41,026 bases of DNA from a virus (lineage: Duplodnaviria > Heunggongvirae > Uroviricota > Caudoviricetes): positions 126,961 to 167,986 of IMG/VR virus record IMGVR_UViG_3300021255_000060; one strand, 5' to 3'. The position numbers and the translations under genes are program-made. The stretch's first letter is position 1. The number at the start of each line of letters is the position of its first letter. Below the pieces are notes generated by a model, which saw only the letters and a program-made list of their open reading frames with translations, had not been told where the DNA came from and made no database searches. Positions 807 through 39,022 of the stretch are shown here, piece after piece.

Positions 807-3086
807 ATGGCTAAGAAGAGTATAATAGATCCAAAGTGTCTTAAAGATGAAAAACCAAAACCTAAGAAAAAGAAAGTTGAGACACCTTTGGAGAAAAGGA
901 ATAAAATACCGAAATTTACAGAAAACTATGAAGAAAGTTTAATAAGGCAGTTATTTGAAGAGAAAGAAAACAAGATTAAGTCAATTGATTTATCTTCAGT
1001 GCGAGAACAAGAAGATAAACTATGAGTTCACCACAAACGAAATGGCGCAGAATGAGATGTACCAATTGACGAAAAAATTGAATATTTTGATCCAGAACTG
1101 TCTTATGAAATTACTGGATACCGTCCAATTACAATGGAACAAGGTTTGGATTTTGATCCAAAGCCATTTAGAGAATGTGCTATAACTTTTGAATCTACTG
1201 GTAAATATACAGAGTTTCCTAATGGATCTGTACCAAATAAAAAATTTTGAAATAGAGAGATGGATAGGCTTAAAAATGGACTTACTATAGGAAAATATAG
1301 AATTACTGGAGACCATTATTATTTTCTTAATTATTATCGTATGCAGACTGTATTAGAAAATGCAACTGCTGGTACTGGTCGTGAATATAATTTTCCTACT
1401 TTCTTATCAAAACAATACGAGTGGTTTCATTATGTAGAAATGGCTGAAAAATTAGGCTTAAATGTTGGAGCACTAAAAGGTAGAGGTACTGGATGGTCAG
1501 AAATGACAGCTGCGATGTCTGTACGACCATATACTTCAAATCCGGCATATAGAGTGGTTCTTACTGCTTTTGATGATGGTAAATTACAACCACTTCGTGA
1601 TAAATGTTGATATCAGTTAAACTGGTTAAATGCTAACGCATATGGATTCCGGCATATTCGTCAAGTTGTAGATAATGCATATACTAAACGAGCATCCAAA
1701 CGAACAAAAGAAGGAGCTGAAGTTGGATGGATGGCAGAAATACATTCTATTATAGCAGACAAGCCTTCAAAGATTAGAGGTGATCGTACAGATAGATTAG
1801 TGTACGAAGAAGCTGGGTCTAATACAGTTTTATCTAAGTCTTGAATTCAAGGTGACTCTTTAGTTGAATTGGGTGGTAAACACTTTGGAACAAAGATATT
1901 TTTAGGAACTGGAGGTGATGATACAGCATTAGAAGGTCTTGCTACAATGTTTAAGAATCCAAGAGGTGCAAAAGTTTTGCCTTATAAGAATTATGATACT
2001 ACAGAAGGCGATCCAGAAATAACTTGTTTCTTCTGTCCTTCACATAAATTTGCTTTAGTTAGTGAATATTTAGATAATCGTGGTGTAACTGATTGGGTTA
2101 GATTTAAAAAACATTACGAAGAGTATCGCAAAACTTTACATGGTCAAGATTATCTAGATGAATGTGCAGAACATTGTTTTACACCAGAAGAGGCCCTTTC
2201 TAAAACAGGAGAAAATTTATTTGATGCAGAATTAATTGCTGCAAGGATGTCTCAAATCATGACAAAACACAATTGGACAGAACCTAAAAAGATGATGCTG
2301 TTATGAGATAAAACTACAGATAAACAATGATCTAAAATCAATGCTTATGAGTCTCCGCATGGCAATGTACTTGTTGTAGAACCACCATTAACAACCGAAG
2401 ATGGTTCAGCATATAAAAATTTATATGTAGCTGGAATCGACTCTATTGATATTGGACAAGATGAATCTGCATCAGATACAGATGTTTCTGATTTCTGTAT
2501 TGTTATCAAGAAACGTATTAGAGGAATGGACGATCCAAAATATGTTGCTATATATAAAGAAAGACCAAGAGACATTAGACAAGCATATGAAACAGCGCAT
2601 AAGTTATTAGTTTGATATAATTGCAACGCTATGCTAGAAGCAACTAAAATAGGTATTCAAAGATTTTTAGAGGAACGTAAAGCATCCGATAGATTAATGA
2701 AACGCCCAGAATATGCAGTATCTAGTAGAGCAAAAAAGATAGCAACTAAAAAATTAATAGGTCTTACAGCAACAGAATCTGTTATTAAACATGGTTTGGA
2801 ATTAGTTGGAAACTTTCTTAACGATTATTGATATACTATAGATTTTCCTGACATTTTACAACAACTTTTAAAATATTCTTATAGCCAGAAACGTAAATTC
2901 GATATAGTGGCTGCGATGCAGATGGCTGAAGCAGGTGATGAAGAACTATTTGGATTGAATCCAGCTAAAGTAATAGATCAAAGTGCCGTGTGAGTAGATT
3001 TTGGATATTTCCGAGATAAAAATGGGCATGTACAACACGGTGCAATTCCATCAAATAATAAATATGAGACACGATGAAAGACATAG
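807..3086 (+). CDS. terL: Terminase large subunit, ~759 aa with TGA=Trp (ends 3077 if the last TGA is a stop)
   Basis: One frame joins ORFs 807, 1260, 1869 and 2631 across TGA only. Motifs: LKGRGTGWS (Walker A region), RLVYEEAGS (Walker B), YVAGIDSIDIG and KFDIVAA (RNase H-like nuclease). Confidence 0.95.
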
Positions 3087-3370
3087 ATACAGAGATACGT
3101 GAATTAATTAACAAAGTCACAGAAAGAGAGTATGTATCAAAACTTCATGTGGATTATACAGATGGTATATGGACACTTTATTTATATTTAAATAGAGAAT
3201 TAGTCCCTATGGTTATGAGCATTCAAGGAGATTATGAAAAATTTAAAGCTTTTGTTGCTCAAGAAATGAGAAAACGTAGATTACATGAAGTTAAATATTG
3301 AAAAACTAATAGAGAGTTGCCTGCTCTTAACTGTGATGAAGAAACAGGTGAATGGGAATTAGGATGATAA
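3074..3370 (+). CDS. Hypothetical protein between TerL and portal, ~98 aa with TGA=Trp
   Basis: ATG 3074 overlaps the TerL end; reads through TGA 3299 to TGA-TAA at 3365-3370, overlapping the portal ATG. Confidence 0.75.
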
Positions 3371-5583
3371 AAGAAAAAGAAATAGAAAAAATAAACCATT
3401 GTATTAGTGATTTGGTTTATGATAAAATAGCTTTAAAAAAGGCTTATAATTATTATCACGGTATTCGAGATGCCGAACAATTTAGACATATTGAGGAAAA
3501 TTACGGTATCGGAGTTCCAACATCTGTAGGATTCACACCGTTAATTAAAAAACACATTGATGTACTTGTCGGAGAATATCTTGAATTGGACCCTGATTTA
3601 CAAATTACTTGCAAAGATGAGGAAACACTCTCAAATATAATGAGGGATAAAAAACTCAAGATTGATAAAGAACTATATGAATTTTTACGCAAATATTTAC
3701 AAAACGCTATTGTAAATATTTTGTTAAATAGCCAACAACCTGTAAATGATCCTTTTATAGAAAAGGAAATGCAGAAAATTCAAAACGATATAGAACAAAG
3801 TTATATATCTGATTATGAAATTGCTGCACAGAACATTCTTTCATATATTAGAAATTCAAGAGATTTGGATTTGAAAAATAAAATGCGGGAATTATTTACA
3901 GACATATTAGTTGCTGGAATTTGTTATTATCGTGTTAGACCTAAAGGCGATAACATTTCGTTAGAAATATTAAACCCATTAGATACTTTTATAGAACGAA
4001 ATCAAAACGAATTTTATCTAAATAAATCTAGAAGAGCTGTAGTTAGAAGATGGCTAACAAAAGAACAGATTTTAGATGAATTCGGAGATGATTTAGGACC
4101 AGAAGCAATAGATCGATTAGAAGGAATGTTCGAAAGATATTCTTATGATGATAGAGCTGTTGTTGTAAGATCTACTGGAGCGTTATATGATGACAACGCA
4201 GATATACTTGGTAACGGAAAAACTCCGAGTCCTGGTATACTTGGTGGATTAGAAATTCATCCATTGTTTCCTTGGGATGAATCTGGCAGATATACTTATT
4301 CTAATGCTGACGTAATTGAAGTGTATGAATGTGAATGATTGGAATGAAGTAAAAAGAAAAATCGTTCAGTATTACATTATGGAGTAAGAATAGGAAATGA
4401 CATCTTTATTACTCCAGGAGAATCAAAATACTACGTTCAAAATAGAAGTAATCCAAAAGATGTTTCTTTAAACATCAACGGAATGTTTTTTAATGATAAA
4501 AACGGACAGCCGTATAGTCTTATGCTAGCTACAATGAACTTACAGGACAAATATGACTTACTACTGTACTGCAGAGATAATCTAATTGCTACTAGTGGTA
4601 CTGTAGGAGATTGAATTGATATAGCACATATTCCTGTAGCATTGGGAGTTAGTATGCCAGAAAGAATTATGAAATGACAAGCTTACAAAAAGAATGGTTT
4701 GGCATTATATGATTCTTCTCAAGAAGGTGCACAGATTCTTAATACAACTTTTAATGGATTTGATGATACTGTTAAAGCACAGTCTATCCAAGCAATTCAA
4801 ATTGCAATTGAATCGGTAGAAGCACAAGCATCTGCAACAACTGGAGTCTTTGCAGAAAAACTTGGAGGTATCCAAGAAAGAGATGCAGTGTCTAACGTTA
4901 AAGTGGGAATTCATCAATCCTCACTTCTTACAAAACAGTATTTCCATGCTATGGATTTGATGTATAAAGAAGTTAATTATGACCTATTAAATCTGGCAAA
5001 AGTAGTATATAAAAACGGAATCACTGGTTCTATTATTCTTGGAGATAGATTAGTAAAAACATTTACAGCACTTCCAGAACATTACACTTTAACTGATTTT
5101 GATATTCATATTCAAGATAGTTCAGAGGCATATAAAATGCGAGAGGACATAAAAGCAATTAACATTGAATTGATTAAAGCAGGTATGGTTGATGTACAAG
5201 ATACATTGTCTATTATTACTGCAAAGAATATGACTCAGTTAAAGAAGTATGTTGAACAATCTATTAAGAATAAAAAGGCCGAAAACGATATGATTGGGCA
5301 ACTTCAACAGCAAGTTGAACAAATGACAAATGAAAAGAAGCAATACGAACAACAAATGCAACAACTTAATTCTGAAATTCAACGTCTACAAAGTCAGGTT
5401 GAAAACAATAATAGAGAAAAACTTCAAATTGAGAAACAAAAAGTTGCAATTGATGAACAAGTTGCAAAAGATAAAAAGGATTACAATGATAAACTTATTG
5501 AAGTTAAAGAAAAGCAACTTAATGCAGAAATATTGCAAATTAGAGATGGAAATCCTTATAACGACCAAATAAGAGACGTATAA
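3364..5583 (+). CDS. Portal protein, ~739 aa with TGA=Trp
   Basis: Joins ORFs 3352 and 4699 across four TGA. crAss-portal-like sequence (AYNYYHG, TPLIKKHIDVLVGEYL, GICYYRV), C-terminal coiled coil, follows TerL. Confidence 0.92.
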
Positions 5584-5584
5584 T

Positions 5585-6334
5585 ATGGACAGTAGACTTT
5601 TTATGGAAATTGGAATCAACGACAATGGAAATCTATATGTAGTAGATAACTCTCCATATGAACGTTGAATTGAAGAATACGAAGAGGATATAGACCATGT
5701 AGTTTTTGAAAGAGTTTTAAAAATCACAACAGATGATTTGGATTATGAAGTGGTAGACGAAATATCTAATCCTGCTACATCTATCAATGAATTGAGAGCA
5801 GACAAAGAATTTGAATTACCAGAAGATAATTATTATCGTTATCAAAAAATGATAATCCCAACTGTAGAACATCGTGGAGATTCTACATGCTATGCTAGAC
5901 AAATCACTGTTACAATGAATGGTAAAGATCAAATCGATTATGCGATATATATTCTAGAAAACGATATACCAAGACAAGTTGATTTTACAGAAGCATTTGA
6001 TTATGTAAATAACGTAAATACTGGTAATGCATTTTGATTTGATGATGATATATTCTCTATATATAATTTAATAAAATGCTATATTCTAACAGAAAAGGAA
6101 AGATTAGCAGATTGATTAAAGAATAATTGTAAAGCAAATTGTGATAAGTTATCTTTGGTTAATACTAATGCAGATATGTTAATGGCTGCAGTTACAGTAT
6201 TAACTTACTTGATATCTAAAAGACAATTTTTGGAAGCATTTAGATTGTTAAATGGATTATCTACTTGTGGAACTTTATGTAAAGATTTTAGAAACAATAT
6301 AAAGGGTTGCGGTTGTGGAAAATCTGTATATTAG
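5585..6334 (+). CDS. Putative structural protein with Cys-rich C-terminus (CGTLC...GCGCGK), 249 aa with TGA=Trp
   Basis: ATG 5585, three in-frame TGA, TAG 6332-6334; abuts the portal stop. Confidence 0.75.
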
Positions 6335-6506
6335 ACTATATGAGTTGTTAAAAGAAGAAATGTCCGAGTTACGTCTCGGACATTCTTTTAACAGAGAAAG
6401 GATGGCTGAAATGAGAGAATTATGTCACATATTGACATATTTAAAATATGTGGATATGGGCAGTACAGATGTAATGCAAATATTCCAATATTATGACAAC
6501 TTATAA
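6315..6506 (+). CDS. Small hypothetical protein, 63 aa
   Basis: GTG-start ORF overlapping both neighbours in a tightly packed operon. Confidence 0.65.
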   Translation: MENLYIRLYELLKEEMSELRLGHSFNRERMAEMRELCHILTYLKYVDMGSTDVMQIFQYYDNL

Positions 6507-9500
6507 TAAACTTCCATATTCTAATCAATTTGAAAGAGGACATTCTTTTAATTGAGCTGGACATTGAAAAGAAGGCAGATATTATTATAATGATTCATAT
6601 GTTACCGATTTTGTAGTATTAGAGAACGTTGTATTAGTTTGTAGAAAAAATCATTTATCTTCAGATAAGCCAGAATTTGTATATAAAGACGGAAAAATTG
6701 TAGATATTAAATCTCCATTTTGAGAGTTTGTTCTTTGTGCTGAAGCTAGTGGTGGTGTCGCTATAACATCTGCTGAATTTATTGCAAATGCAACATATGA
6801 TGATTTTATTGCAGATCCAAATGTAATAATTGGAGACCCTTATATAAAAATGTACTTTTACTCAGGAGCATATTTATATACTCCTGTAAAAGATATAATT
6901 ACACAATATAAAGTAGGCATTCCGGTTTTAACACAAGCAATGTATGATGAGTTGCCAGACGTTACGAAACCTGATAAATGGTTACAAATTCCAGATGAAA
7001 CTGATTTAACTGAAACTGATGCTGGAGATTATTTGAATATATTATTCTCAGCAATCAGGAAATTACAAGCAGAAGTTACAAAATTAAAAAATTCGTTTGA
7101 TTATGGTATTGTATCTTATACTGGTACTGATACAGCCATGTCTGCAGTTGTTTCAGAATATGATAAAACAGAATCAGAAGAACCTTTATGGTCAATAGAT
7201 GAAGATGATTTATCTATCGTGGAAAATGCTACAATTGACTTTAAATCTCAATCAATACCGCCATTTGTTCCAGTAAACAACTTCCAATATAATGCAAACG
7301 GAGTAGCAAATATTACAGGTACTGTAAAATGAACAGATCCAGAAGAGGAAGGATTTAAAGAGCGCACTTCTGATACTAAGATTTTATTGTATCTTACAAC
7401 CACTACGTTGCATGATACATTTAACTTAGTTGGAATGTATGATAATTCTAGACTTAGTATAGATCTATCTACATTACCAATTCCTGCTGCTAATGATAAT
7501 AAATATAATATTTGTTTTCTTATATCTAGAAACGTTCAGTTAGATGAAGATTCAGAAGAAAAATATGGAGATAACTATATATGAATTAGTGTAAGCTCAT
7601 TTTTAAACGATATTGTTTTACTTGAAGGTTTTTATGACCCGTCTAATGGTAGAATTTCAAAAAGTCAAGTAAATATAGATACAGCTTATACAATTCAATC
7701 TGTTGATCTTGGAGTAGGAGATCTTTATAAATTTAAAGGTTGTTCCAAATATCAAGATTTTAGCAGAAAAGTAATCCCAAGTAAACCAAACGAAAGTGAT
7801 TATAGATATAAAGTAGCACACTTAACCATTAGATCTGTTGACAATTTTGCAGAATTAGAATCTGTAGAAGATTATCTTCTAGAAAACGAAATGATTTGGC
7901 AAGCAGATGAAGATATTTTATGAATTAAAACTAAAAAGGGACTTCGTACAATAGGAAGTTCTGATGGAGGAGACGACTCAGGTATGACACAAGAAGAAAT
8001 ATTACAAATGTTGAAAGACATGGGGATTGTGTATGTTGATGATACAGGTCTCCAACTATCAGACATTTCTGACATTACATTTATAAATGAAGATACTGGT
8101 AAACGATTTAAATTTGGAGTAACTTCAGAAGGAGAATTAAAAAGCGATGAAGTTCCAACTGAAAAATTAAAGGATATTGTTTCTCGTCTTGGAAGTAACC
8201 TTTCAGATAGTACTGGAAAAAGAGGTTTTATTTCAAGATTACTGTGTAGAACAGATGGAAATAATATAGATGCTTCTGCAGAAAAATCAGATCTTAGGCT
8301 TAGATCAGATAGACTGAAAATTGGAGCATTTTATGCGCCATTAAAAACTGATACCAAATTTGGATGTTCGCATGGATATATCGAATTAGAAAATACATCT
8401 GATTCTGATATTCCTTTAGACAATGTGTATCTTCATTTTATGCATCCAGATTCAACTAATGCATTAGTTATAGATAAACTTGAATTGGATGGTTATATTC
8501 CAGCTGGAGGTACTTATTTAATTAGATGTAAACAGTATGCAGATCCAAAAGTTAATGCAGATGTATTCATAAATGTAAATACTTTTGATAAAGAATGGTT
8601 TATTAATGGTGAATTAATGGACCTTAGAGTAGATACAGAAAATACATATGGGTTTCTATTAACATATGGTGATAAAGATGGAAATAATGAAATTACATAT
8701 CAATCATTGTTTATTTCTAAAAATACTGGTGATGTAGATTCTAAAGCGATTTATAGTTATAAATGGTTCTTTATCGATGCTATTATTTTAAATCGAGATC
8801 CATCTAATACCACAAATCAATATTGAGGGTACACTGGAAACGCTAGTAACGCTATAAAACCAAAATCTAATACTATCATTAAAAATACGTTTGAATTAGA
8901 TCCAGCAAAACAAGCGTATCAATCACATACAACATATGATAGTTCAAGATATAGAGTTGAATCTAAAGCAACTGATGTACAGTATCTAAATCTAGATAAA
9001 GAATATATAGAGTTTCCACATACAGTAGATAAATTTCCAGTTAGTAATTATACGCCAAAATCTTCCAGACAGCACAAAAATGTTTCTACAGACAAGACTA
9101 AATTAAACATGGATAAACCAAATATGGTTACTTGTTCATTTGGAATTAATGCTTATAATACAAGAACATTTAATTGGATATCTGCTGGACAATTTGATGA
9201 ATATGTTTGATTAAAATCCGGAAGTAATTGAATCAAATTCGAATCTTACAAAGCATCTGATGCAGATAAAGAAGAACTTGTATCATTTCCTAAAAGAAAG
9301 GAATGAAGTGCCGATGCAATAAATAATATCTATAAACGCATTGTTGGAGATTTTCCTGGAGATGGATCAAAATACACTTCTCATAAATGTATAATTCAAT
9401 TAATTGCTGATTCTGTAGATAATCCTACAACATATACATATATTGTTGGTAGAGCAGATAAAAATGGTAATCCTGATTTTGAACATTGTTCAGAAGAATA

Positions 9501-11052
9501 CACATTTACATTGTACCCAACTAGTTATATTCCTAGAATCTATCAAACAACAGATCAGCAAGGTTTCCATTGAATTGAATACCAAGTTTGAGCAGCTGCT
9601 GCAGACAAATTAAATTCTAAAATTTTAAGTGATTGCCAAAATGAAAACATCATTCCAGTCTTGCTTAATACTGGAGACATGACACAAAATGGTACTCGTA
9701 TCAACGAATGATTAGATTATTATAACGCTGGTATTAATTTGTTTAAACATCTTGAACAAGTAAATGTTGTAGGTAATAATGATCTATGTAATACAGATCC
9801 AGAAATACTTGGAACTGGCGACGATAATGGTAAATCTAATAGCTTCTATTTTCATGTATTTTATTGCTACGAAATAAACGAAAACAATATACCTTTGATT
9901 ACTGGAGATAATGGAGATAAAAAGTATGTTCCTTCATTATATTACATTGATTTTTCAAAGTATCGTTTTGTTATAGTTAATAGTGAGATTACATATGTAA
10001 ATTGTGATGCATGATTTAATAGGCATAAAACAGTAAATGGTACAAAGTATCCAATTAATGTTTATACTGGATGAGCAATAAACAATAAAGAGATAAATAT
10101 TGATTCTACTGATTATTTTGATAGTGGATTTACAAGCATTTATACAATGGTTTACAATATGCTTAATTCTGCTTCTGGAAAGAATGTTATAACAATCTGT
10201 CATGAAATGCCATTTACCGTTATTACAAGGGATGGACTTTCTCCATCAAATAAGAATAATTATCGTTCATTAAGTGGATCTGGTAAATCACTTATTGGAA
10301 GTCATACGAATCAAATTAATGGATATGATATTGTTGGAATTCATTGATTTAGCAGATTAATGGAATTTTTTAATGTTAAATTGTGTCTAGGCGGGCATAA
10401 GCATACATATGCTTGTACTTTCCCAATTTGCGAATATTATTATTACGATAATGGAAATAAAAATAGTTTAACTGATGGATTTATGACTATGGAAAGTACT
10501 CTTGAAAATGAGCTTTCTGTTAATTGAATGTTTGGAGAAACTAATTTAACTAAAAAACCTTTAATTGACAGTTCTTGGTCTAATTCTTATGATTTTACTG
10601 AAGATACATTACATTTTTCTCCAGCAGCACTTGTAGATTTAAGTGATACTACAAAACATCATCCAGTAGTTTATATGATGTGCCAGGCATCTGGTTATAA
10701 GTTGACTTCTAATAAAGAACTACCTAGTATATATCAACATTTTTCTAGAGTTATTCCAGAAACATCTGAAGGATCTGGAAGTGGAAGTGATACGGCTGAT
10801 ACAAATCAACAATTCCCAATGATATGTATTACTAAGTTTACGGAATCTAATAATTCTGTTACATATTCTATTGAACTGGCAAGAATTCATAATATTTTAA
10901 ATAATAAACAAAAGTTCACACAACAAGCGTTTGGTACGAAAGCCCCATTATTTTCTTACGCTAATATTAATCAGGGAAGATTTATTTCTTGAACAATAGA
11001 TAAAGATTCTACTACGGGCGCAGAAACGGAAACTACTTTAATAACAATTTAA
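6493..11052 (+). CDS. Giant putative virion protein, 1519 aa with TGA=Trp: lamin-tail-like domain + purple-acid-phosphatase-like metallophosphoesterase
   Basis: One frame from ATG 6493 to TAA 11050 joins ORFs 6850, 7387, 7984, 9739, 10147 and 10528. LTD-like YIELENTSDSDIPLD...IPAGGTYLIR; metallophosphoesterase motifs TTDQQ (9547), TGDMTQNG (9670), VGNND, CHEMP, GGHKHTY. Confidence 0.85.
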
Positions 11053-11053
11053 T

Positions 11054-14000
11054 ATGAAGCTTAACGGTAAATCTAACGTAATAACAGATGTAGATATAAC
11101 TCTCACCAATACCAAACACATTGGTGAGAGTCTACACTCTGTAATAGAAGAAACAGACGAACGTCTAGATAAACTGGAATCTAACATTAAATGAGTATAT
11201 GAAAATGGTGGTGTTGGTTCTGGTTCTGGCGGTGGTGGAGGAAGTTCTACAAAATGATATATTCGTGCAACATTAGGTGGTATTGCTCTTGAATCAAATA
11301 GTACCGTACCGTTAAGTAATGGTGCTGGAACATACACACTTAGATTGTATACTAGTGGTGGTTCTGGAGACTATAGTGTGTCTTATACTGTTGGTAAAAA
11401 TCCTACAAGAACTGTTAAATTAAATGCGGATAATGGGTGAGCTGTAAACGTATCGTTGGATCTTCAAGAAAATGGAATTATTGAAATAATCGCAAAAGAT
11501 GGTATAATTACTAGAGAAATAACAGGTGTATCATATATTGTTATTCCTTATGCTTTTAGTGTTCCTGCACTATATAGACGCGATGGTAGTCAATATGCAT
11601 CGTCTAGTGGTGATATTGGTGTAAATATTGCTCAAAGAAATGGAATTGTTTTAAAAGCTCCATATATAATTGCAACTCCTGCTCAATTATGTGAATATAA
11701 ATGATATCAAAATGGAGTTGAAATTCAAGACGCTGGAGGAACAATAAGTGATGCTTCTGGAGAGATAATATATGAAATTCCAAGATCGTTAATAGAAAAC
11801 GACAATGCTGGATTATACACATATCAACTAGTTGTGAGTCTATTACCTGTTGGAGCAGTAGAACCAGTAATAATAAGTAATAGCTGTTCATTTAACTTAA
11901 TTCCAGAAACTCTTTATTTAAAAATATCTCCGACTAATTCTGGTGAGGTTATATATACATCTGATGATATTGAAGATCCATATTATTTTGCCACTAATAC
12001 TAAAATTGCACTTAATGTACGTATCTATAAAGGTTTGTCTTCTCAAAACTTGTCTGGATGAGTTAGATGAGAAGTAAATGGAGAAGATCCAGAGTCTTAT
12101 GATGGAAACGGTTCATTAAATGTTACTGATGGATATACTTATAAAATAACAACCCATTTTTTAAACCCAGGAGTAAATAAAGTAACTTTTTACTATGCAT
12201 TAAATGGAGAGCAAGGAACTCCAATTGAAAAGTACTTTTATTGTAAAGAAGTATCTACATCTTATAATTGATTTTTTCAAACAGATACTTCAAATAATAA
12301 TCCAGAAACAAGACGTTATTATATTCCTTCAGAAACTAGTGGTACAACTAAATTATACGGTATAACTGGTGTTTCTGAATCAGCTCTATATATAGAAAAA
12401 AAGAAATCTGATGAATCAGATACAATACTGACAGTTACAGAAAATTACGATGATGGTCAATATACAGGCGATAATCAAATGCTTAATTTTGGTATCCAGT
12501 ATAATGATATCAACAATACAGTTAACCCATTAATTACTTGTTATGATATAACTGGTAGTGAAGCGATTACAATCTATCAAAATAAAATTGTATTTGGAGG
12601 TCAGTTTTCGCAGTCTCCATTAGATTGTAATGTTTTCTTACATAAAGAAGTTGATTATGATCCGGAAAATCCTAAAAAATACCATCTACTAACAATAAAT
12701 GTAGCAACGTGTTATCAAGCAGACAATAATTATTATTATGAAATAACCACATACTTAGACGGTAAAATAGAAGGTACTGTAAGTACTAAAACTATTGCAT
12801 CTGCCAGAATAAATACGGTTGCATTACACAATTCTAACTTCTCTTTAAATCATTTTGAAATTTCAAGTTGAGGTACAAGTGATATAAGACGTGTTTATGA
12901 TATTGATATAAATTGATACTATAATAGTTATGCAGATCGTATTGGATTATCTATTGATCCAGAAGAAACTGAAATTCTAACTCAAATGTTTGATACGTCT
13001 GGAGTTCAGTCTAAACCTAATTATGATATGAATAATCGATTAATTAAGGTTGATGCTGGAATGCCAGAAAATATTGCAGGAAAAATAGATGTTCCAGTAA
13101 TGGTAATAACTTGCAATAAAGATATCATTTATCAAGGAGCGAAAACAGATATTTTTACTTGGATGAACACTTCATATACAGATGGGCAAGTAGGCTTAAA
13201 CTCTGTAACATTGGATGTTCAAAAACTAGAATGGTGTCCTGGAATAAATAAAGAACTAAAAGAAATTAAATTAGAAGGAGAAAATGAAGAAGTTTTGGGA
13301 AGCTTTACATTAGATTTGCAGGGTTCTTCTACAATGACAAATAAAGCGAAAAACTTTACTTTAGCTGTCGAACCTTCTGAATCTATTGCATCACAAAATA
13401 AAGCCGTTCTATTTTCTCCAAATTTTGTTTCTGATGAAGCTTCAACATTCTTACCAGAACGTGCATTTACATTAAAGGCGGATGATGTGGACTCTTCACA
13501 CTCAAATAATACTGCTGTTGGTAAATTTGTAAATGAGAATAATAACTGAAATTATCGTAATATGATTGATTTAATTGGTGTTGAAGATGCCATTAAATCT
13601 CATATTAAACAATGTTTGGAAGGTTTTGCGATGTTGTTATTCTTACAAGTTAAGTATCGTGAAGGTAATACAGACTATAACGATTATTATTATCTTGGAA
13701 TTTATAATTTTAACTTAGGCCGTAATTCTTATTTTAATCTTGGATATACAGATTTAAAACAACTAAGTAGTGTAGAATTAGATGAAAGTGCATTAGACCA
13801 TAATGGTTTTGCTCTATGCGTAGCAAGTGTAGAACCTGTTGCTGGTTTTGTAGCTGCTGAAATTCAAGATAATTCACCGTATTGAGATTTTTCACAATAC
13901 GATCCATCTATTTTATTTCCACTAAATGATACTGAAAGTTCTGGATTTATGTTCGGAGATTTTGTATATGCCCCTAATACTGAAAGTGTTTCTACTAGTA

Positions 14001-19660: not shown

Positions 19661-20117
19661 TGATAAGTTTTTAACTTTATCTGGATTACGGCATGTGATT
19701 TCAGATTTAAAAAGTTATTTAGATGGAAAAGAATATATTATATCTTCTGCTCTAAATGACTTAGATAGTAGATTGATTGATCAATCACTTGGAATACAAT
19801 ATGATACTACTGCAGGATGAAATAGTAAAACTGGATATATTCCAAAAAAAGGAGCATTAATTATATATTCTGACTATACAACTGTTGATAGAAATGGAAG
19901 AACGCTTCTTGTTCCAGGTATTAAAATAGGTAGTGGAAATGCATATGTACAAGATTTAGCTTTTATAGATGAGGCTCTTGCTAAAAAGTTAGTTAATCAT
20001 ATTAACAATAATATAATGCATACAAATGCAGATGAAAAATCTTTTTGAAATAATAAAATAAACGTAGATGATTCTGCAGAAGTTGTAAATGAATCATTAA
20101 TTTTTAATAGAAACTAA
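19653..20117 (+). CDS. Putative tail-fibre-associated protein, 154 aa with TGA=Trp
   Basis: ATG overlaps the previous stop; two in-frame TGA; TAA 20115-20117, next ATG at 20119. Confidence 0.72.
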
Positions 20118-25906: not shown

Positions 25907-26338
25907 ATGAAGCCAATAAAAACTTTTAAAATGGGAAGTAGGGTATTTTTTGAAAATATGCCTGGATTTGAATCAAAAGATATTGATGAATTGTGTATAA
26001 TGGATGTATTTAATTTAAAGGGTAATAGTTTACATCTAAACGGGTTACATGGTAAGGATGTGTTTTTATATAAAGATATGTCTAAAGAAAGATTTATAGA
26101 AGATGCTGGTAAATTACCAATGAAAGTTGGTAAGTTTTTAGTTCCAGAATTTGCTGAATATCTAGGAATGACTATAGAGGATCTAAAAAAGCTAAAACCA
26201 ATAATTGATGCTATTGATGAAAAGCACGAATATGAAAAAGTAATTTTTGATTCTTATATAGAAAACAATGGATTTTATCTTACTGATGAGCAAAGAGAAC
26301 GAGCATTTAAGATATATAAAGAAAAAAGGAATCAATAA
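25907..26338 (+). CDS. Small Pol-beta-superfamily nucleotidyltransferase-like protein, 143 aa
   Basis: ATG 25907 preferred over TTG 25895. MGSRVFFENMPGFESKDIDELC fits the hG[GS]x9-13DhD signature. Confidence 0.6.
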   Translation: MKPIKTFKMGSRVFFENMPGFESKDIDELCIMDVFNLKGNSLHLNGLHGKDVFLYKDMSKERFIEDAGKLPMKVGKFLVPEFAEYLGMTIEDLKKLKPIIDAIDEKHEYEKVIFDSYIENNGFYLTDEQRERAFKIYKEKRNQ

Positions 26339-28605: not shown

Positions 28606-29459
28606 TAACACATAATGAAACATTTACTGGACATCCAGTATCTTATGACACTACAGACTATAGTTGGTATTCATCTTCAAATATGCAAAATGGATACACG
28701 GACTCTTCAAGCACGTCATATAATAATGTTTATATGACAAGGGGCACAAATGCAGAAACGTGGTTTTATTATGATTTTGATACCTCGTCTATTCCGGACG
28801 GTTCCACAATAAAGTCAGTAAGTTGTACGTCTAAATGCTATTCACAAGGTGGTTCTGCAGCAGTTCCCACTAAATGAATGTGCTTTTTCTCTGGAACAAC
28901 TCAAAAAGGAAATACGTATGCATTAAGTACAACTACAAACGTACGTACTTTAACCTTAAATTCCGGACTCACTCTTTCCGATATTCGTAATGCTAGAGTA
29001 AAAGTATATGCAAAGAGAGGATCTTCGAATACTACTACAAACTATTATATCCGTTTTTATGGAGCTACACTCACTATAAGTTATTCGTATGACGAGACAT
29101 ATTACGAAGTAACCGGTTCGAGCAACAAATCGAGTATTACGGTAACAACTACTGCACCAGAGTTTGCTTCTGGAGATAATGTAACGGTAACAATTACTGG
29201 TGACATCACTGATGCTGTAGTCACAGACAATGGTATTGATGTAACAAACCAATTGTCGGGGTCTGGTACGACACATACATATCAGATTAATGGAATCGCC
29301 GCAGACCACACGATTGTTGTAACAGCGTCCGGGCAGACAATTTTTATAAAACAAAATGGATCTTGGGTTTCTATTGATCAGATATATGTTAAGCAGAATG
29401 GGACGTGGAACCCTATTGATGCGTTGTATCTAAAAGAAAATGGAATCTGAAAAAATTAA
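28593..29459 (+). CDS. Tail-fibre-associated protein, 288 aa with TGA=Trp
   Basis: Joins ORFs 28593 and 28878. The C-terminal triple repeat KQNGSW / KQNGTW / KENGI(TGA) places TGA at the repeat's Trp. Confidence 0.82.
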
Positions 29460-29649: not shown

Positions 29650-31572
29650 ATGGCCGTTAGTGCAAATGATAAAATCGTAAGAGGCGGAGATCTTGCTACT
29701 ATTGGTGCGCAGGTCAAAGCCAAACTTGCAGAAAAGGTGTCAAGTGAGAATATAGATAATATACTCTATTTGACATCTGCCGAATATGACGCCATCGCAA
29801 CAAAAGATCCAAATACAATCTATGTTGTTACTGATGGTGGTGCAGAGCTATATCCACAAGATGGCAAGTCTGCATATCAAATATGGCTTGATGAAGGAAA
29901 CACTGGTACGGAGGCTGATTTCCTTGCTTCATTGCAGGGCAATCCGGGATCCTCGCAGGACTATCCGTTCGAACTGGAGAATTCGCTCAATGGAGGCACG
30001 AACAAGGCTCTGGCTGCTGAGCAGGGCAAGGTTCTAGATGGGAAAATAACACAACTTAAATATGATTCTGTTAAGAATGCCTTACCTTCATCTGCCATAT
30101 CAGTACAGGTTGTAAATGAAGATGTAGATCTTATTGTAGAAGACACAGAAATAACTCTTGACACCATTATTTATGACGGGAAATCTCTTCGTACTATTTT
30201 TGAGACAAACAATCTCATAAGTTTTCCTGCTGGTTTTGAGGATGGTCTTGGGACATATACTATTAATGCTGGAAATCCAGTAATTACAACAGAGGAAGCA
30301 GATTCCGGAACACACTCCCTGAAATGTTCCGGCTCATCGTCACAGCAAATCGTCTCTCCAGCAAAAGCGGCTGGTACTGCTTTTTTTGCGTCACGAATTA
30401 AAATAACTTCATGAGTATCTGGATATTGTGGGATTCAATATGGTACAGGTGGTAATACCAATCATGATGGTGGTGTAGCAGGTATCACGGATGGATGAGT
30501 CACGAAAGTGGCAAGGAAAGATGGCTCTAGTTCGTATAATGTCTATATAGGAAGTTTTTCTTCCGCAAATTTGACTGGATATATAGATACACCAGTTATT
30601 GTATTTGACAGTACATTTGATAATGTACCATCTGAATCACTATTTACTACATTGTATAATAAATATGTAGATTTAAAAAGGGGAGATTCTGCATACACAA
30701 CAAGAACTATTAGACTTGCTACTATCGTAGACAAGGAGACTCCATCTGCAAGCGCATGTAAGTCTGCGTTTCTTTCCGCTCTAAATGCGAAGGCATCTTT
30801 TGTTGGTGCAACATCTGCAATTTTTATGGATGCTTCTGGTCTAGTATGGAACGGGTCTGCTGCTTCTGCCAATGATATTTTACATATTCTCGTCCACGCG
30901 TCTGGGATTCGTCAGATAGCAGAGAAGTGGGGAAAGAAAACTTACAACATGTCAATACTTGGTAGTAATGCCAGAACGGAGGCAATAGAGACCTCTGTGG
31001 CTAGTTCGTCTTATGATGAAGTGGCGCACCCTATACTTGGAGGGAAAACTGGGACCATTACTGCTTCCGGTAATGTCAATTACAATCTTGCGTGGATTGC
31101 GAAAATCGGGGATAAAGAATGCGCATGCGTTCTGATGGGGGATTCTACTGATGCAAGACGATGGTCTGATGCAGAGGCTATTGCTGATTACCTCGATACA
31201 GTTATGGCTGGCGGATCAGCAACGTTGAGCATAAACGCCCCGAGAGCTGCGGCTTGTGTTTTGCCGAATAATCCTATTATGTATGACAATACCTCATTCA
31301 ACCTTCTTATCTCAAAATCTGTGGCCGTTACTGGTATTCCGGCATCATTGACAAAGATAATGAGTTTGATTTTAGCATATGATTATATTGTAGATGAAAA
31401 CGAGTTGGTAACAATTGAGTCTTCTGACATCATTGGCGGCTCTGGCGATAATTTGCAAGCTGGAGATGTCGTAACAATAAGGGATCTTGTATATGATATG
31501 CTTCTCCCGTCAAGCAACGATGCAGCTACTGCACTTGCGAGATACGTTGGTGCAAAGATATTGGGCTATTAA
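29650..31572 (+). CDS. Putative tail fibre/spike with C-terminal circularly permuted D-Ala-D-Ala carboxypeptidase (peptidase S11/PBP-like) domain, 640 aa with TGA=Trp
   Basis: Joins ORFs 29650 and 30508 across two TGA. Motifs KTG 31045-31053, SLTK 31345-31356, SSN 31510-31518; N-terminal GKSAYQIW fibre module. Confidence 0.85.
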
Positions 31573-31587
31573 TAATTAATATATTAT

Positions 31588-34158
31588 ATGCAAACAGGTA
31601 AAATATACAAAGGAGCCACCTTGATTAGTGGAGGTGGTTCCAACGGAAAAGATGGTGCATCTGCATATGAACTTTGGAAGGCTGCTGGAAACACTGGAAC
31701 AGTAGCTGATTTCCTTGAATCACTCAAGGGCGAGCCAGGTTCTAGTATTGACTATCCGTTCACACTTGCGGATGACTTAGTTACTACGGACACAACAAAG
31801 GCTCTTGCTGCGCCGCAGGGCGTAGTATTGAAGGAACTTTATGATGGATTGTTTTCGATTAAACAGCGGAATTACACTAATGGTTATAAGTTGGACAATA
31901 ATGGTAAGACAATCTATGATCCGATTTATATAATGTCAGACAAGATACCAGTTTCTACCGGAGATACAGTATATTGGAGATACAACACTACGGCAGATGC
32001 TTCAAACATCAAATTAGTTACATACACGTCCTCTGATGTAAAAATAACGTGGTGGGGCGCAACTTCAAATAACTCAAGAACATTAACTATAGAAGATGCA
32101 AATGTTGCATATTTTAGGGCTGTCATACCAGCCAACCAGTTTTACGCAGGCTACGTAAATATCAATGGTGTTCGTGCATGAACCCCATCCGATGGTGTTG
32201 CGGGTGAGATTGCGTCCTTGAAAAAATCGAGAGATGCAATCTTCTCTGGTGGGAAATATGAGGAAGTTGTCCCAGTCATATGGAATAATGACAATCAATA
32301 CATGGGTGTTGATGGCACATTTATATCAAGTGAAAACGCGCATACGTCTTCTTTGCTTTTTGTGCCTGCTGGGGTTACAATCAATGCAGAGCTTGGTGCT
32401 GGAACAACATGTTCTGCAATAACCGTTGTGGGAGAAGACGGCACATTTATAAGTAGTGCCGCTACTGGGAAAGGTTCAGCAAATACCATCGGTCCGTATA
32501 GTTTTACAGCAAATGAGGATTGCTATGTAATGTTTTCCAGCAGAACGGACGTACATGCGTATATTACGTTTTTGTACGACGGAAGTACTATTTCTGGTGG
32601 TAATGACGAAGAAATAATTTATAGTGGAGAGTTGGTTGGTAATGGTGATACACTTTCGTATCGTAGATTCCCTGCTAGACAAGGCGATTATTTGCATATA
32701 TTCTTCCCTAATGGGAACTGGTCAACTGACAGTAACAGAGAAAGTTATAATAAGTTAATTCTTGGCAGCGTTCGAATAGACGGGGTTGGTTATGCTGGAG
32801 GTGCCGAGGTGTTGAGAGAAGGCTGGGTCTGTCCAGAATATGGTTTTGACTTTATAGTAGAACCATTTAACATTAATGACCCCATATCAGAACCATATGG
32901 CGGATTGTCATATAGGGCGGCATCCGGTGTGCATGTTCCTTTCGTTATTTCAAAGTTGTCAAAAACAACACCAAAGAAATGTTTCGACCTTGAGATGGCA
33001 AGGACGATTCGGTCTGTCAAAGAGAGAATCGTTGATGGTAAAAGCCTTGTTTTCGCAATTTGTAGTGATTTGCATTATAGAGATCTTGAAGAAGGATATA
33101 GGCCCTTTGCTCAATTCTCTCCTATTCAGATGGCTATAACAATGAGGAATTTTACCGAAAAGGTACGTACTGATAACGTTGTGTGTCTCGGAGATATTTC
33201 TGATGGAAGGTGGACTGCTGCGAGGGCTGAATTGGATGCTTATACCTGTCAGTGGTTCTTGGGACAATGTAAGGCCCCCGTCTTAAATGTCGTTGGCAAC
33301 CACGATGATAACCGTTATTATAGCCAGCAAGACGGAGATAGACGGCTAACGCAAGCTGAAATTTATTCGAATATGATGTCTCACAATGACGAGCGCATTA
33401 CTGTTGATGGTGCGATGGGCGGTTGTAACTATTATCGTGATATTGATAGAGCAAAGGTCCGTCTGATTGTCTTAATGGGAATTGATTTTAATGGAAATTA
33501 TAACTTTACAACCGAAACTCAAAACTGACTTAGTGCTACATTTTCTTCTATGCCAGAAGGTTGGAAAGCAATTATTTTTACACACGTTCCCCCAGTTGCG
33601 GCACAAAACTGGAGTGGTACTGCTTATTCCGGAGGAGGATACATATCAGATATTATTTCCGCAAACCTAGACAAGTTCCTTTTCTTATATGAAGGACATA
33701 CGCATATTGATAATGTGTATGTTTCTCCGTGGACAGCAATTAATATCGGTTGTCAAAAAGTGTATAATTCAGAAGATGGCACTAATACGCTCGGCTCTTC
33801 TGCTCCAGAAGGAGCTTGATGGCCTGTTCGTGCTGCTGGTGATTATCGTGAAGTGTTATGGGATGCAGTTGTTGTTGATCAGACTAATTCCCTCCTATCT
33901 TGCATAAGATTTGGAGCAGGGGTCGACAGATATATTCATCTTGAACCGATAACATTGGCTGCGGGAGGATCTGTATCTCTAACCCCATCAGTAATTACTG
34001 CAACGTCATGGGAGACAAGGACAAGTGAAGTGGAGTCAATAAGTATTGCAAATGGCGTTGCCTCTTTAACATCCGCTGCGGTATCAGGATCTCGTCATAT
34101 TGCAATTGCGAAGGACACGGATGGCAATATGGAAATTTGGTGTATTAAAGTTTCATAA
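31588..34158 (+). CDS. Putative tail fibre/spike with C-terminal calcineurin-like metallophosphoesterase, 856 aa with TGA=Trp
   Basis: Joins ORFs 31588, 32218, 33550 and 33853 across three TGA. Full motif set: SDLHY, GDISDG, GNHDD, THVP, GHTH. Confidence 0.85.
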
Positions 34159-34551: not shown

Positions 34552-35439
34552 ATGGCAGAAGAAAAAACTTATGTATTTGACGGTGCTTCTCGCAACGATA
34601 TTCCACTTGCCTATGCATTAAACGGTAATGGTGGTTTTGGTAACGGTTTTGGCGGCTGAGGTGGTGGTATCCTTGGTTTCCTTCTTGGTGCACTATTTGG
34701 TGGTGGCTGAGGCGGATTTGGTGGTTTCGGCGGAGGTAACTTCGGTGGAGCTGGATATCTTGGCAATCAGATTAACAATGATAATAATACAGACCTTATT
34801 ATGCAAGCAATTAATGGAACAGATTCAGATGTACGTTTACTAGCTACTACTTTAAACGCAGACGTTAATGAAGTACGCAGCGCTATTTCTACTATGCAAC
34901 TTGCTATTCAGAATGTTGGTTCTCAGGTTGGTATGAGTGGCTTACAGATTCAGAATGCTATTCTTTCTGGAGACGCTGGTATTCAGTCTAAGATTGCCGA
35001 GTGTTGCTGCGAAAATCGTCTTTTGACTACTCAGCAAGGTTATGAAGCTCAGCTTCGTACTATTGAACAGACTAACACTCTTGGTACACAAGCAGAACGC
35101 AATACAAACTCTATCATAAATGCAATTAATGCTCAGACTATTGCAATGAATGATCAGTTCTGCGCACTTAAAGAACGTGAACTTCAAGATAAGATTACCT
35201 CTTTAACTGCAGCTAATACTGCTCTCAAAGGTCAGATTGATAACGCTAATCAAACTGCTGCTGTTGCTGCTATGCTTGCTCCAATTCAGAAAGAAGTTTC
35301 TGAAATTAAGGCTGCACAACCTGCAACTACAACTGTTACTTATCCTCAGTTAACTGCAGTTCCATCTTATATGTTATATGGAAATGGAAGTTATTACGGA
35401 TATCCTTTTTATAATGGAAGTGGCTCTATCTGGGCTTAA
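34552..35439 (+). CDS. Gly-rich hydrophobic N-terminus + coiled-coil protein with CCC motif, 295 aa with TGA=Trp (cassette gene 1)
   Basis: ATG 34552, TGA at 34657 and 34708, joins ORF 34801. GGFGNGFGGWGGGILGFLLGALFGGGWGG segment, heptad region, ECCCEN. Confidence 0.85.
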
Positions 35440-35464
35440 TTTAGCTTAGGAGGGGCTTTACATT

Positions 35465-35800
35465 ATGGCAACTAGTTTTTTATTTAATAGAGTTAATATT
35501 AATGGAATCCCATGTATAGAAACTACCGGTATAACTGAAAGTGCTACATCTGTAACATATAATTTTAATGCGTCTCCATCGGTAAATCCAAGATTTTCTG
35601 GAATTATCGCTGTAAGAGTAGATGTAACACCTACTACAACAACTTTACCAGTAAATTTTAATGTTCCAAGTATAGCTGGAACTACAATTGCTTTAACTCT
35701 TCCAGGAGGTACTCAAGCAACTGGTGACGATTTAACTGCTACCGGAATATACTTGGTATTCTATGATAGAACAAATGGAATTTTACAATTATTAGTTTAA
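35465..35800 (+). CDS. Beta-rich hypothetical protein, 111 aa (cassette gene 2)
   Basis: Clean ORF; Thr/Val/Pro-rich alternating pattern. Confidence 0.8.
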   Translation: MATSFLFNRVNINGIPCIETTGITESATSVTYNFNASPSVNPRFSGIIAVRVDVTPTTTTLPVNFNVPSIAGTTIALTLPGGTQATGDDLTATGIYLVFYDRTNGILQLLV

Positions 35801-35804
35801 TATT

Positions 35805-36308
35805 ATGTTTCAATCAGTAAGACCAAATAGTCCAATTTACGTATTTCATAAAGGCGATAATGTTAGATTAGAAACTGGGTACGTTGTAAATCAACCAATA
35901 CCAAAGCCTAAGTATCAAATGCCACATAATTTTGGACAGACGCAAGAAATGATAGTAGATTTAGTTGTTAAATTAAACGATATGACAGTAAATTACAATG
36001 CGTTACCTGCACAATTAGATATTGCTGATTCTTACAGCAATGGAGAAAATATAGTAATATCTGATAGTCGTGATGCAATAAATGCTGAAATTATTAGTTT
36101 AAAACAAAAAAGTATAGATATAATAAATAGTGTAGATTATCATAAATCGTTAATTAACCAATATGATAAACTACTAGCGGACTTTAATCCAGAAATGGCA
36201 GAAAAACAAGCTCAACAGCAAGAAATTGCTCAATTGAGGAATCAAATGGACGAAATGAGTAAAAATATGGCCTTACTGATTGAGCAATTAAAACAAAAGG
36301 AGAACTAA
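35805..36308 (+). CDS. Hypothetical protein with C-terminal coiled coil, 167 aa (cassette gene 3)
   Basis: Clean ORF, tightly packed. Confidence 0.82.
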   Translation: MFQSVRPNSPIYVFHKGDNVRLETGYVVNQPIPKPKYQMPHNFGQTQEMIVDLVVKLNDMTVNYNALPAQLDIADSYSNGENIVISDSRDAINAEIISLKQKSIDIINSVDYHKSLINQYDKLLADFNPEMAEKQAQQQEIAQLRNQMDEMSKNMALLIEQLKQKEN

Positions 36309-36310
36309 CG

Positions 36311-36514
36311 ATGCGTATGTGGGAAATTAGAGAAAAGGACAAATATAGCGATTATCGCATGGGTAATAGACACATGTCTGCAGAAGAAGCTTACGAATGT
36401 GGTTACGAAGATGGCTACAAAGAAGCTATGGAAGAGATTGAAGAAATGGGTTCTAGAACATCTTCCTATAGAATGGGAGAACGTTCTAGAGATTCAAGAG
36501 GAAGATATCGTTAA
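36311..36514 (+). CDS. Small charged protein, 67 aa (AYECGYEDGY and RSRDSRGRY motifs; cassette gene 4)
   Basis: Clean ORF, tightly packed. Confidence 0.78.
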   Translation: MRMWEIREKDKYSDYRMGNRHMSAEEAYECGYEDGYKEAMEEIEEMGSRTSSYRMGERSRDSRGRYR

Positions 36515-36517
36515 AAT

Positions 36518-36928
36518 ATGAGATTGGATGCAAGAGATAAGTTTCCATCTGGAATGGAAGATTATCTTTCTGCTTATGGATGGCACTTTTCAAAGAAAAT
36601 GTTTGAATGAGCAACTTCAAACATGTACAAAGAAGATATAGCCGGAAATAGATCATATATTAAACCTATGGATAAAGATTCTGTAGATGAGCTGTTAAAA
36701 AGATATAACGTTAACCTAGAAAATAAAAATGGTTACGATTATGTATTTGCAGCAAATATGGCTATGGCAGATTATATGGGATCTTCAATAGAAGATGAGA
36801 AACACATAGCTTTATTCATTAAAGACTATGTAGACGACAAAGATGGATATCCAGAGTTACCTTTTACTAGGTTTTATGCCGATTGTATAGGATCTGGACA
36901 TCCAATATCATGAGAAGACGTAATTTAA
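36518..36928 (+). CDS. Hypothetical helical protein, 136 aa with TGA=Trp (cassette gene 5)
   Basis: ATG 36518, TGA at FEW and ISW, TAA 36926-36928 overlapping the next ATG. Confidence 0.8.
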
Positions 36929-37356
36929 TGATAGTTCAGGAATTCTACCTTGAGGATTGGGATTGATATGTAATTGTATATTACGCAGTTGATACATATT
37001 ATGTAAGTGAGATATTAGGTGAATTGGAAGAAATTGGCTGTTCAGAATACGAGTTAAAAGAAGCAGAGAAAAATTTAATGACAGCAAGATATAATATAGG
37101 ATTAACTTATTCCAACCTCAAGGTTAGATGTTCTGTTGTCGTTATAGGATTAACTTCGTCTCCTGCACAATTTCAAAATACCTTTGATCATGAAAAAGGT
37201 CATTTAGCTATGCACATTTGTATTGAATCAGATATTGATCCATTCTCTGAAGAATATCAGTATTTGACTGGAGAAATCGGACAACAAATGTTTCCAGTAG
37301 CTAAAAACTTTCTTTGTGAACATTGTAGATTAAAATTAAAGGGTGAGGACAATTAG
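36928..37356 (+). CDS. HExxH putative zinc-metallopeptidase-like protein, 142 aa with TGA=Trp (cassette gene 6)
   Basis: ATG 36928, one TGA (WDW); TFDHEKGHLAMH with a downstream PFSEE Glu. Confidence 0.72.
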
Positions 37357-37424: not shown

Positions 37425-37688
37425 ATGATAGACCAAAATAATATTGATTTCGATAAACTAAAAGGATTTGATACCTATCCAACTGCTGAAGAGGTAGAAA
37501 ACTTTCCTACAATAAAATATACAGTATGAGATAAATTGAAGCAAGCAATAAGAAAATTGCTTCCTCCTGAAAATGTAAAGAGAGGTAGAAATTGACATAT
37601 GTATCCTGGCATTAACCTAAATGGTCCGCCACAATTTTATGAAAATGGAGCGAAAGTTAAAACGAAAGATTTGTTTAATATTTATTAA
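37425..37688 (+). CDS. Hypothetical protein, 87 aa with TGA=Trp
   Basis: ATG after a promoter, two in-frame TGA, TAA 37686-37688. Confidence 0.6.
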
Positions 37689-38037
37689 ATATTCACCTTG
37701 AGTCATTGGCTTATATTATTTAGTTCTTAGTATTTTATCTTGCTATGGTATAAATTTATTTATATTTAATGAAATATTCGGAATTACGGCAATAACAATT
37801 TTATTAGTTACATGTTTATCGTTAATTCTAGAGTTTTGTATATGGCATAGATTACCATTATATTATTCTAGTTTGATTGAGATTATTAATGGAATAGATT
37901 ATTATCTAACAATACCATTATCAAATAAATTTATGCTTATAATATACTTAATAATATTTGGAATATTTATATTGATTGGTGCATATACTAAAAATAAGAA
38001 CAATGTCAAAAGAAAAAGAAGTAATACATCTATTTAA
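37645..38037 (+). CDS. Small multi-pass membrane protein (~4 hydrophobic segments), ~130 aa with TGA=Trp
   Basis: Missing from the ORF track because of TGA 37699. Basic N- and C-termini flank hydrophobic stretches; start could also be 37621 or 37639. Confidence 0.72.
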
Positions 38038-38281
38038 ACATATAATTAAAGAAATAGATTGTGGTAATTCCAAAGTAGATGAAGATGGATATGATTTAAT
38101 TCTTGATTCTATAAACAAAATAACTAATACTAAAAATAAACTAAGCAAATATCAAGCTTGTCAAAAGTTAGGAATTAGTAGAGCAACATTTGATAATAGA
38201 GTTAAGGATGGTAAGATTCCAAAAGGTAGAAAAGAACCTGGATTTAAAGAATTGTTTTGATATGAACAAGATTTACAATAA
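38003..38281 (+). CDS. AlpA/excisionase-like helix-turn-helix DNA-binding protein, 92 aa with TGA=Trp
   Basis: LSKYQACQKLGISRATFDNRVKDGKIPKG...LFW is a typical Xis/AlpA winged-HTH pattern. Confidence 0.78.
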
Positions 38282-38606
38282 ATACATATTGTATTTGGCA
38301 TTAGGATTGATTGTATTTTTAATTTTATTTATAAATCAATCAAGATATAATCGACTACAAAATAAATACAATAGATTAAAAATTGAATCTATTGAACAAA
38401 TTGATTCTCTAACATACATTAATAGAGAACACATGAAAAAGATTTCTGAATTTGAATTAGAAATTAATGAATTGGAAAATACAGTTGATTCCTTAGAACA
38501 AGTTAAGAATAAAATAATAATAAAAAAGGATCAAGTAATTGTTTCTTCTACTATTTCAGAAGGTGTACAACAACTTAAAGATAATTTGGAAAGATGAAAA
38601 GACTAA
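38262..38606 (+). CDS. N-terminal TM + coiled-coil protein (inner-membrane spanin-like), ~114 aa (ends 38597 if TGA is a stop)
   Basis: YILYLALGLIVFLILFI followed by heptads; ATGA overlap with the next gene. Confidence 0.62.
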
Positions 38607-39022
38607 TTACATTTTTATTATTATTTGTTTCTATAATCTGTTCTGCACAACTCCCAAGTGAAATTAAACATGTAGAAATTGTATCAGAAGTAGCAGATAC
38701 AATGATAGTACTAAATAAAATTGATTTGGATAAAATCAATACTGCTTTTTACATGTTAGATGCTTATGATTCATTAAATGTTGTTAGTGAAGAAATGATT
38801 TCTACATTAAAAGTCATAAATAATAACTTGGAAAATGTTATTGAGCAGCAAAAGTATGTAATAGATAATCAAGAAATTCAAATAAAGACAATAAATAGCA
38901 AAAATAAAGATGTTATCTCCGATTTAGAGAAACAAGTAAAGAGAGCAAATAGATGAAAAGCATTTTGAGAAGGAACAACTGGAGTTAGTGTAATTGCAGT
39001 AATTTTACTTGCAATTTTCTAA
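38594..39022 (+). CDS. Signal peptide + coiled coil + C-terminal TM protein (spanin-like), 142 aa with TGA=Trp
   Basis: MKRLITFLLLFVSIICSAQ signal; two TGA (RWKAFW) precede the TM segment GVSVIAVILLAIF*. Confidence 0.62.

Follow-up and report, generated by a model that had tools for sequence, protein, structure and literature searches.

The terminal 41 kb of a crAss-like phage genome from the IMG/VR collection (record IMGVR_UViG_3300021255_000060) is written in a code in which, on the evidence of codon comparisons with related DNA, TGA is tryptophan. This 41,026-nt stretch (C1:126961-167986; hereafter the window) carries genes for terminase and portal, large genes for tail and fibres, a cassette of six genes and the beginning of a presumed capsid gene, and it forms the end of a 167,986-bp record that has direct terminal repeats and is rated complete. 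We consider it very probable that the phage infects a host with the standard code, probably a member of the Bacteroidota, and switches UGA to Trp in the course of infection by means of its own tRNA with a UCA anticodon, tRNA(UCA).

An earlier note, made from the letters of the window alone, had proposed that its long open reading frames (ORFs) are interrupted by in-frame TGA and that opening this codon yields full-length, abutting genes. Re-calling of the genes bore this out. Computed from ORFs of at least 100 aa, ORF cover of the whole genome rises from 0.61 under the standard code (table 11) to 0.89 when TGA is read as Trp (table 4), and only to 0.68 when TAG is opened instead, so that the gain is specific to TGA. 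The 30 genes called in the window with TAA and TAG as stops cover 96% of it, as against 23% when each is truncated at its first TGA, and for most pairs the gap between neighbours lies between -50 and +25 nt, the genes mostly abutting or overlapping. Together they contain 103 in-frame TGA and 74 TGG codons, with TGA present in 22 of the 30 genes, all within positions 807-39022. The three internal controls cited in the note are there codon for codon: a repeat at 29349-29450 that reads KQNGS-TGG, KQNGT-TGG and KENGI-TGA, the stretch GDV-TGA-NV at 26827, and RD-TGA-LRGRL at 14990. TAA or TAG closes all called genes, as had also been claimed, an outcome that is built into the calling rule. Three TGAs (at 3365, 28594 and 38595) fall shortly before a TAA or TAG or overlap the next gene's start in an ATGA; these may serve as stop or as Trp with little effect either way, and may once have been the stops, with a second stop as backup.

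The residue specified by TGA was read from DNA. Proteins with an X at each TGA were aligned to related DNA and the codons opposite were recorded with no code assumed; protein-database homologues with Trp at these columns were excluded as proof, since they may themselves have been translated with table 4. Opposite the TGAs of the first five genes of the window, compared with 25 loci, we found TGA 166 times, TGG 131 times, and codons for Tyr (36), Phe (16) and Leu (13), with no codon for Gly, Arg or Gln. The exchange runs in both directions, as TGG sites of the window are often TGA in relatives. When the whole genome was compared with four relatives, TGG made up 66% of the codons that replace TGA where the context is conserved, and no other codon deviated from table 11, although ATG can reveal only substitutions in this test. 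A further count across four relatives gave 185 TGG opposite TGA, versus 9 Gly codons and 2 TAA. The 26 related loci are without exception TGA-recoded and keep TGA inside an otherwise open terminase, and we therefore added outgroups without TGA recoding. Four such phages lack in-frame TGA, namely MT835470 (standard code), MT835539 (TAG-recoded), cr1_1 and ProJPt-Bp1, and each has TGG at two or three of terminase sites 83, 148, 268 and 346. Alignment of terminase and portal, which the earlier note had suggested as a check, thus gave enrichment of TGG opposite TGA, and not the lack of Trp enrichment that it had named as contrary evidence.

No decoder being visible in the window, the note had suggested a search of the full genome for a suppressor tRNA-Trp(UCA) or a release-factor gene, and the tRNA was found. 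Among 18 tRNAs called in the genome by ARAGORN is a tRNA(UCA) on the minus strand at genome positions 79,692-79,763 (L001:7692-7763), 47 kb before the window. It forms a 72-nt short-arm cloverleaf with discriminator base G73, scores 60.1 bits on the Rfam tRNA model, and has the anticodon arm of the relatives' tRNA-Trp(CCA) except for the first anticodon base. That shared arm argues that it is a Trp-derived opal suppressor and not a tRNA-Sec; the name "SeC" given to it by ARAGORN is ruled out by the short-arm cloverleaf, which is unlike tRNA-Sec. Neither a tRNA-Trp(CCA) nor a CTA tRNA was among the ARAGORN calls. No release factor was found: family searches of the genome for RF-1 and for tryptophanyl-tRNA synthetase (TrpRS) gave no match where controls were detected, in a search whose loose first look could let a very divergent gene escape. 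The suppressor gene lies at the downstream end of the early-gene arm, with a terminator-like hairpin 3' of it and, directly 5', the motif ACTTACAA followed by a T-arm-like hairpin. Just downstream are genes for a membrane protein of the MgtC family and a chaperonin resembling GroEL (L001:3358-3753 and 4551-6140, minus strand). A UCA tRNA is also present in two relatives, G001, the nearest complete one (~84% terminase identity), and G002.

Use of TGA differs strongly among regions of the genome. It accounts for 61% of Trp codons in the late plus-strand genes (251 of 413), for 34% in the replication arm and for 7% in the early arm (early versus late, Fisher p 2e-34), and within the minus arm there are 10 TGA versus 128 TGG upstream of tRNA(UCA) and 53 versus 120 downstream of it (p 2e-7). 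Relatives likewise avoid TGA in early genes. Since the A-ending share of Lys, Glu and Gln codons is alike in the three regions (0.74-0.80, with 0.74 in the early arm), selection is the best reading of the deficit in early genes. Across the late genes (n = 26), by comparison, the fraction of Trp codons that are TGA rises with a gene's A-ending bias (rho 0.74, p 2e-5); TGA is scarce in the GC-richer fibre genes and missing from the capsid gene. In late genes TGA is therefore mostly interchangeable with TGG, its use reflecting the A-ending bias of the genome, and no lysis-specific switch is required to explain the window. Recoding had been called genome-wide; this holds for late and replication genes but not for the early arm or the capsid gene, which has no TGA at all.

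The avoidance of TGA in early genes argues for a host that uses the standard code, as we infer it to do whatever its name. In such a host, early genes would be read by the unchanged host machinery; tRNA(UCA) would then accumulate, be charged by host TrpRS and outcompete host RF2 at UGA, after which replication and late genes would become fully translatable. Borges et al. have put forward both charging by the host synthetase and competition with host RF2 (bioRxiv 10.1101/2021.08.26.457843). A delay of late genes would follow from tRNA-dependent decoding, with no need of lysis-specific selection. As to the identity of the host, a Shine-Dalgarno sequence precedes 15 of 177 starts, no clear excess over shuffled sequences (9.6 +/- 2.9), and adenine peaks at -3 and at -11 to -14. 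Bacteroidota lack Shine-Dalgarno sequences and favour A at -3 (PMC6847099), so the starts are compatible with a host from this phylum, which we regard as probable; a search of intergenic regions for the Bacteroidota promoter motif gave no clear enrichment.

Several observations weigh against a standard-code Bacteroidota host reprogrammed by a phage tRNA. A related TGA-recoded phage with 54% terminase identity occurs in a metagenome-assembled genome (MAG) labelled "Mollicutes bacterium", and some opal-recoded phages of the zeta crAss-like group have host predictions in Holdemanella or Faecalibacillus (Erysipelotrichales; PMC12386605). Relative G003 is recoded, yet only a tRNA-Trp(CCA) and no UCA tRNA was detected in it, and a divergent release factor or TrpRS gene of the present phage might have been missed. 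Finally, TGA in late genes stays at 0.61 against an expectation of 0.80 from A-ending codons and is therefore still somewhat costly. The phage in the Mollicutes-labelled MAG lies on a 126-kb contig (JALEQU010000020.1 of GCA_022763865.1; L154) that is annotated in fragments under table 11.

That contig, together with the low GC content of the present genome (about 32%), is what could favour a host that itself reads UGA as Trp, as Mollicutes do under table 4, with the phage following suit and its tRNA only supplementing supply. We consider this highly improbable: a recoded host would not require the early genes to avoid TGA, as they do despite their A-ending share, the terminase is of Crassvirales type, the starts look Bacteroidota-like, and the MAG contig is itself phage DNA that was perhaps mis-binned. 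A better, although still rather unlikely, alternative is the published model of Borges et al., in which recoding serves as an adaptive timer for lysis and virion genes, TGA being specifically enriched in them. The strong contrast between early and late genes fits such a timer, as do the small genes at 37425-39022, with 7 TGA and 1 TGG. However, late-gene TGA follows the general third-base bias and spares the capsid gene, the replication genes for ligase, NrdD, primase, helicases, polymerase and RNase H are recoded as well, and family searches identified no lysis gene in the window. The timer shares its decoding mechanism with the reading that we favour and differs from it only in the selective reason.

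A different objection would be that TGA specifies some other residue (Gly, as in table 25, or selenocysteine) or is a true stop in decayed genes. For this speak the "SeC" call of ARAGORN and the few TGAs that lie no more than three codons before a TAA or TAG and may act as stops. Such a reading is next to untenable, and for the bulk of sites it is refuted by the codon comparisons: TGG far outnumbers Gly codons and TAA opposite TGA, every related locus retains TGA in an otherwise open terminase, and the tRNA does not have the build of a tRNA-Sec. Reprogramming of a standard-code host by tRNA(UCA) remains our preferred reading.

The phage is crAss-like (Crassvirales) as judged by its terminase and portal types, which match phrog_6681 (E=1.5e-58) and phrog_6547 (E=3e-49), respectively. 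The best terminase matches that carry a name belong to Crassvirales and show 25-29% identity, and a fragment from a relative was deposited as "Terminase large subunit [Crassvirales sp.]". A PHROG search gave no match for the major capsid or IHF-like candidates, the capsid candidate matching only two phages. We take the source projects of the close relatives to be rumen samples. In a terminase tree in which Steigviridae and Suoliviridae are the families represented, the phage falls in a 100/100 clade separate from both, and TGA, TAG and standard-code branches all lie inside that one clade. Elsewhere the genome encodes DNA polymerase, primase, helicases, ligase, NrdD and RNase H, as well as a 3446-aa RNA polymerase candidate, intact under table 4, that has no profile match and is recognised by the polymerase-type motif GSDLDIDK (DxDxD) only. 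Phages of the zeta group have genomes of 145-192 kb (PMC7886860) and a transcription block, and stand outside the four families of the International Committee on Taxonomy of Viruses, with Echekviridae as proposed name. Genome size, transcription block and the separate terminase clade make zeta the most likely group; the presence of an RNA polymerase disfavours the epsilon group.

Reassignment of TGA to Trp and of TAG to Gln, mostly in late genes and accompanied by suppressor tRNAs, has been described in beta, delta and zeta crAss-like phages (PMC7886860). As the earlier note had stated, stop-codon reassignment is thus known from crAss-like phages, and ours is a further TGA-recoded member of the order showing a phenomenon already published for the zeta group (PMC7886860, PMC12386605). 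Like the zeta phages of Yutin et al., it has a genome within the 145-192 kb range, uses TGA as Trp mostly in late genes, carries a suppressor tRNA, and has sister branches with TGA, TAG or the standard code. Unlike them, it has its large RNA polymerase gene intact under table 4, and its gene calls show no heavy intron load, although no search was aimed at introns; core genes are called as single ORFs here, and terminases of relatives contain inteins or insertions. In the zeta phage Lera, the genes for TerL, RNA polymerase and helicase contain TGA, and there is a tRNA-Sup(TCA) (PMC12386605). The same three genes are TGA-broken under table 11 in our phage, with TGG at those sites in homologues. 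Going by the published description of Lera, TGA affects about 18% of its ORFs and it has a CTA suppressor too; here about 40% of called genes contain TGA and no CTA tRNA was found. The gut phages Agate and Jade combine code 4 in late genes with early genes compatible with the standard code and a suppressor tRNA (bioRxiv 10.1101/2021.08.26.457843), and our phage resembles them in all three respects and in the proposed reliance on the host synthetase. Jade, however, encodes RF1 and TrpRS beside its tRNA, neither of which was found here in the family searches, and replication genes are described as standard-code in the examples of Borges et al. but are partly recoded here.

All genes of the window lie on the plus strand. 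The terminase large subunit (807..3086; 759 aa under TGA = Trp) has 11 TGA and 6 TGG and ends in TAG; it is followed by a conserved 98-aa protein (3074..3370) with 2 TGA, the final one immediately preceding its TAA stop, the 743-aa portal protein (3352..5583; 4 TGA, 2 TGG), in which the codons opposite TGA are mostly TGG or TGA, and a 249-aa protein (5585..6334; 3 TGA, 0 TGG). A putative virion protein of 1519 aa (6493..11052; 18 TGA, 7 TGG) has a C-terminal metallophosphoesterase domain (Pfam PF00149), and a 2653-aa protein (11054..19015; 29 TGA, 4 TGG) has leucine-rich repeats (LRR_EndoS, E=8e-8) and the region that had been labelled CotH, a label that weakens to a faint CotH-kinase-like resemblance (Pfam E=0.13, with 12.1 bits where the cut-off is 23.8). 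Three genes at 19136..21171 (174, 154 and 350 aa; 3, 2 and 2 TGA) are assigned to the tail by position. A repeat-bearing fibre-like protein of 1573 aa (21184..25905; phrog_25468, of unknown function; 8 TGA, 8 TGG) precedes a second of 755 aa (26338..28605), which holds the TGA at 26827 (GDV-W-NV) and, in an ATGA overlapping the next start, that at 28594. The 288-aa protein that begins there (28593..29459) has the C-terminal triple repeat with TGG, TGG and TGA at the equivalent position.

Two GC-richer fibre or enzyme genes at 29650..34158 use TGA for 2 of 7 and 3 of 19 Trp codons and specify proteins of 640 aa (peptidase S11) and 856 aa (metallophosphoesterase), respectively; the former (29650-31572) is fibre-like, ends in its D,D-carboxypeptidase (peptidase S11) domain, and has a GC content above that of the genome. 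The six-gene cassette (34552..37356; 5 TGA, in three genes) includes DUF7841 and a Gly-rich coiled-coil protein with a CCC motif. It keeps 71% identity in both G001 and G002, the adjoining tail genes being far more diverged, and bacterial homologues of a cassette gene were limited to two MAG contigs that gave no clue to the host. Among the products of the five small genes at 37425..39022 are an HTH-like protein and a pair of coiled-coil proteins with membrane anchors. Lysis-like functions had been attributed to the last genes of the window, but these five had no Pfam match above cut-off and none to a lysis family, and the coiled-coil pair is weakly spanin-like, by layout only. The segment 39088..41025 holds the gene of an acidic protein of 370 aa and the opening portion of the last gene, presumed from position and conservation to encode the major capsid protein; with 0 TGA, it provides the contrast case.

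The UCA tRNA of G001 is built differently from the plain one in the present genome, which has no two-armed form. It is 94 nt long (C1:80187-80280, minus strand; L105:3892-3985) and has an additional anticodon stem-loop, of Trp(CCA) type, where the variable arm would be, and both tRNAs occupy the same interval between homologues of a GMP-reductase-like and an AAA gene. By exact pattern, two-armed UCA tRNAs of about 94-97 nt occur in 14 viral contigs (L098-L111), mostly from unrelated TGA-recoded phages: eight of ten other records checked gain 0.07-0.30 in coding cover when TGA is opened, and none of the ten shares structural genes with our phage. A Pfam terminase search of these genomes found nothing, even in G001, and was thus uninformative. 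Covariation is seen in the outer pairs of the additional stem, where both sides differ in 5 of 12 and 4 of 12 sequences; its inner pairs and loops are fixed by the search pattern and have no evidential value. A narrow literature search found no natural two-armed suppressor tRNA. Tentatively, sister phages might meet the problem of charging a UGA suppressor differently at the same place in the genome, one with a plain and one with a two-armed tRNA, a suggestion to which we attach less than even weight. Near the corresponding position, G005 has an odd 91-nt UCA element (C1:133098-133188, minus strand; L096) with a Trp-type anticodon arm and non-canonical D and T arms, and a CUA-anticodon tRNA was also called in that genome.

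Three other tRNAs of the present genome, all on the minus strand, are unusual. The call "tRNA-Stop(tta)" at 83959-84033 (L001:11959-12033) was ruled out as an ochre suppressor because a one-base shift gives a 5-bp stem and a Lys(UUU) loop, as in a mis-registered, somewhat degenerate tRNA-Lys(UUU), and because TAA ends 134 of the 181 called genes of the genome. An 87-nt tRNA with the His anticodon GUG (82395-82481; L001:10395-10481) has a long variable arm, differs in this from four relatives, whose tRNA-His is short, and is not among the Rfam matches at gathering score. The tRNA with anticodon CAG (90963-91038; L001:18963-19038) does not look like a substrate of LeuRS, given its short variable arm, its mismatched C1-A72 pair and its G73; reassignment of CTG was nevertheless ruled out, as CTG aligns with Leu in 78% of cases.

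For annotation, these findings mean that the clade needs table 4, since table 11 fragments its terminase, portal and tail genes. To the published picture they make small additions: TGA in late genes follows neutral third-base bias, genes upstream of the tRNA avoid it most strongly, and a close relative carries a differently built suppressor. If the extra arm acts as a decoy for host TrpRS, G001 and the present phage would form a natural test of that function, and suppressors would appear to be swapped after recoding is fixed.

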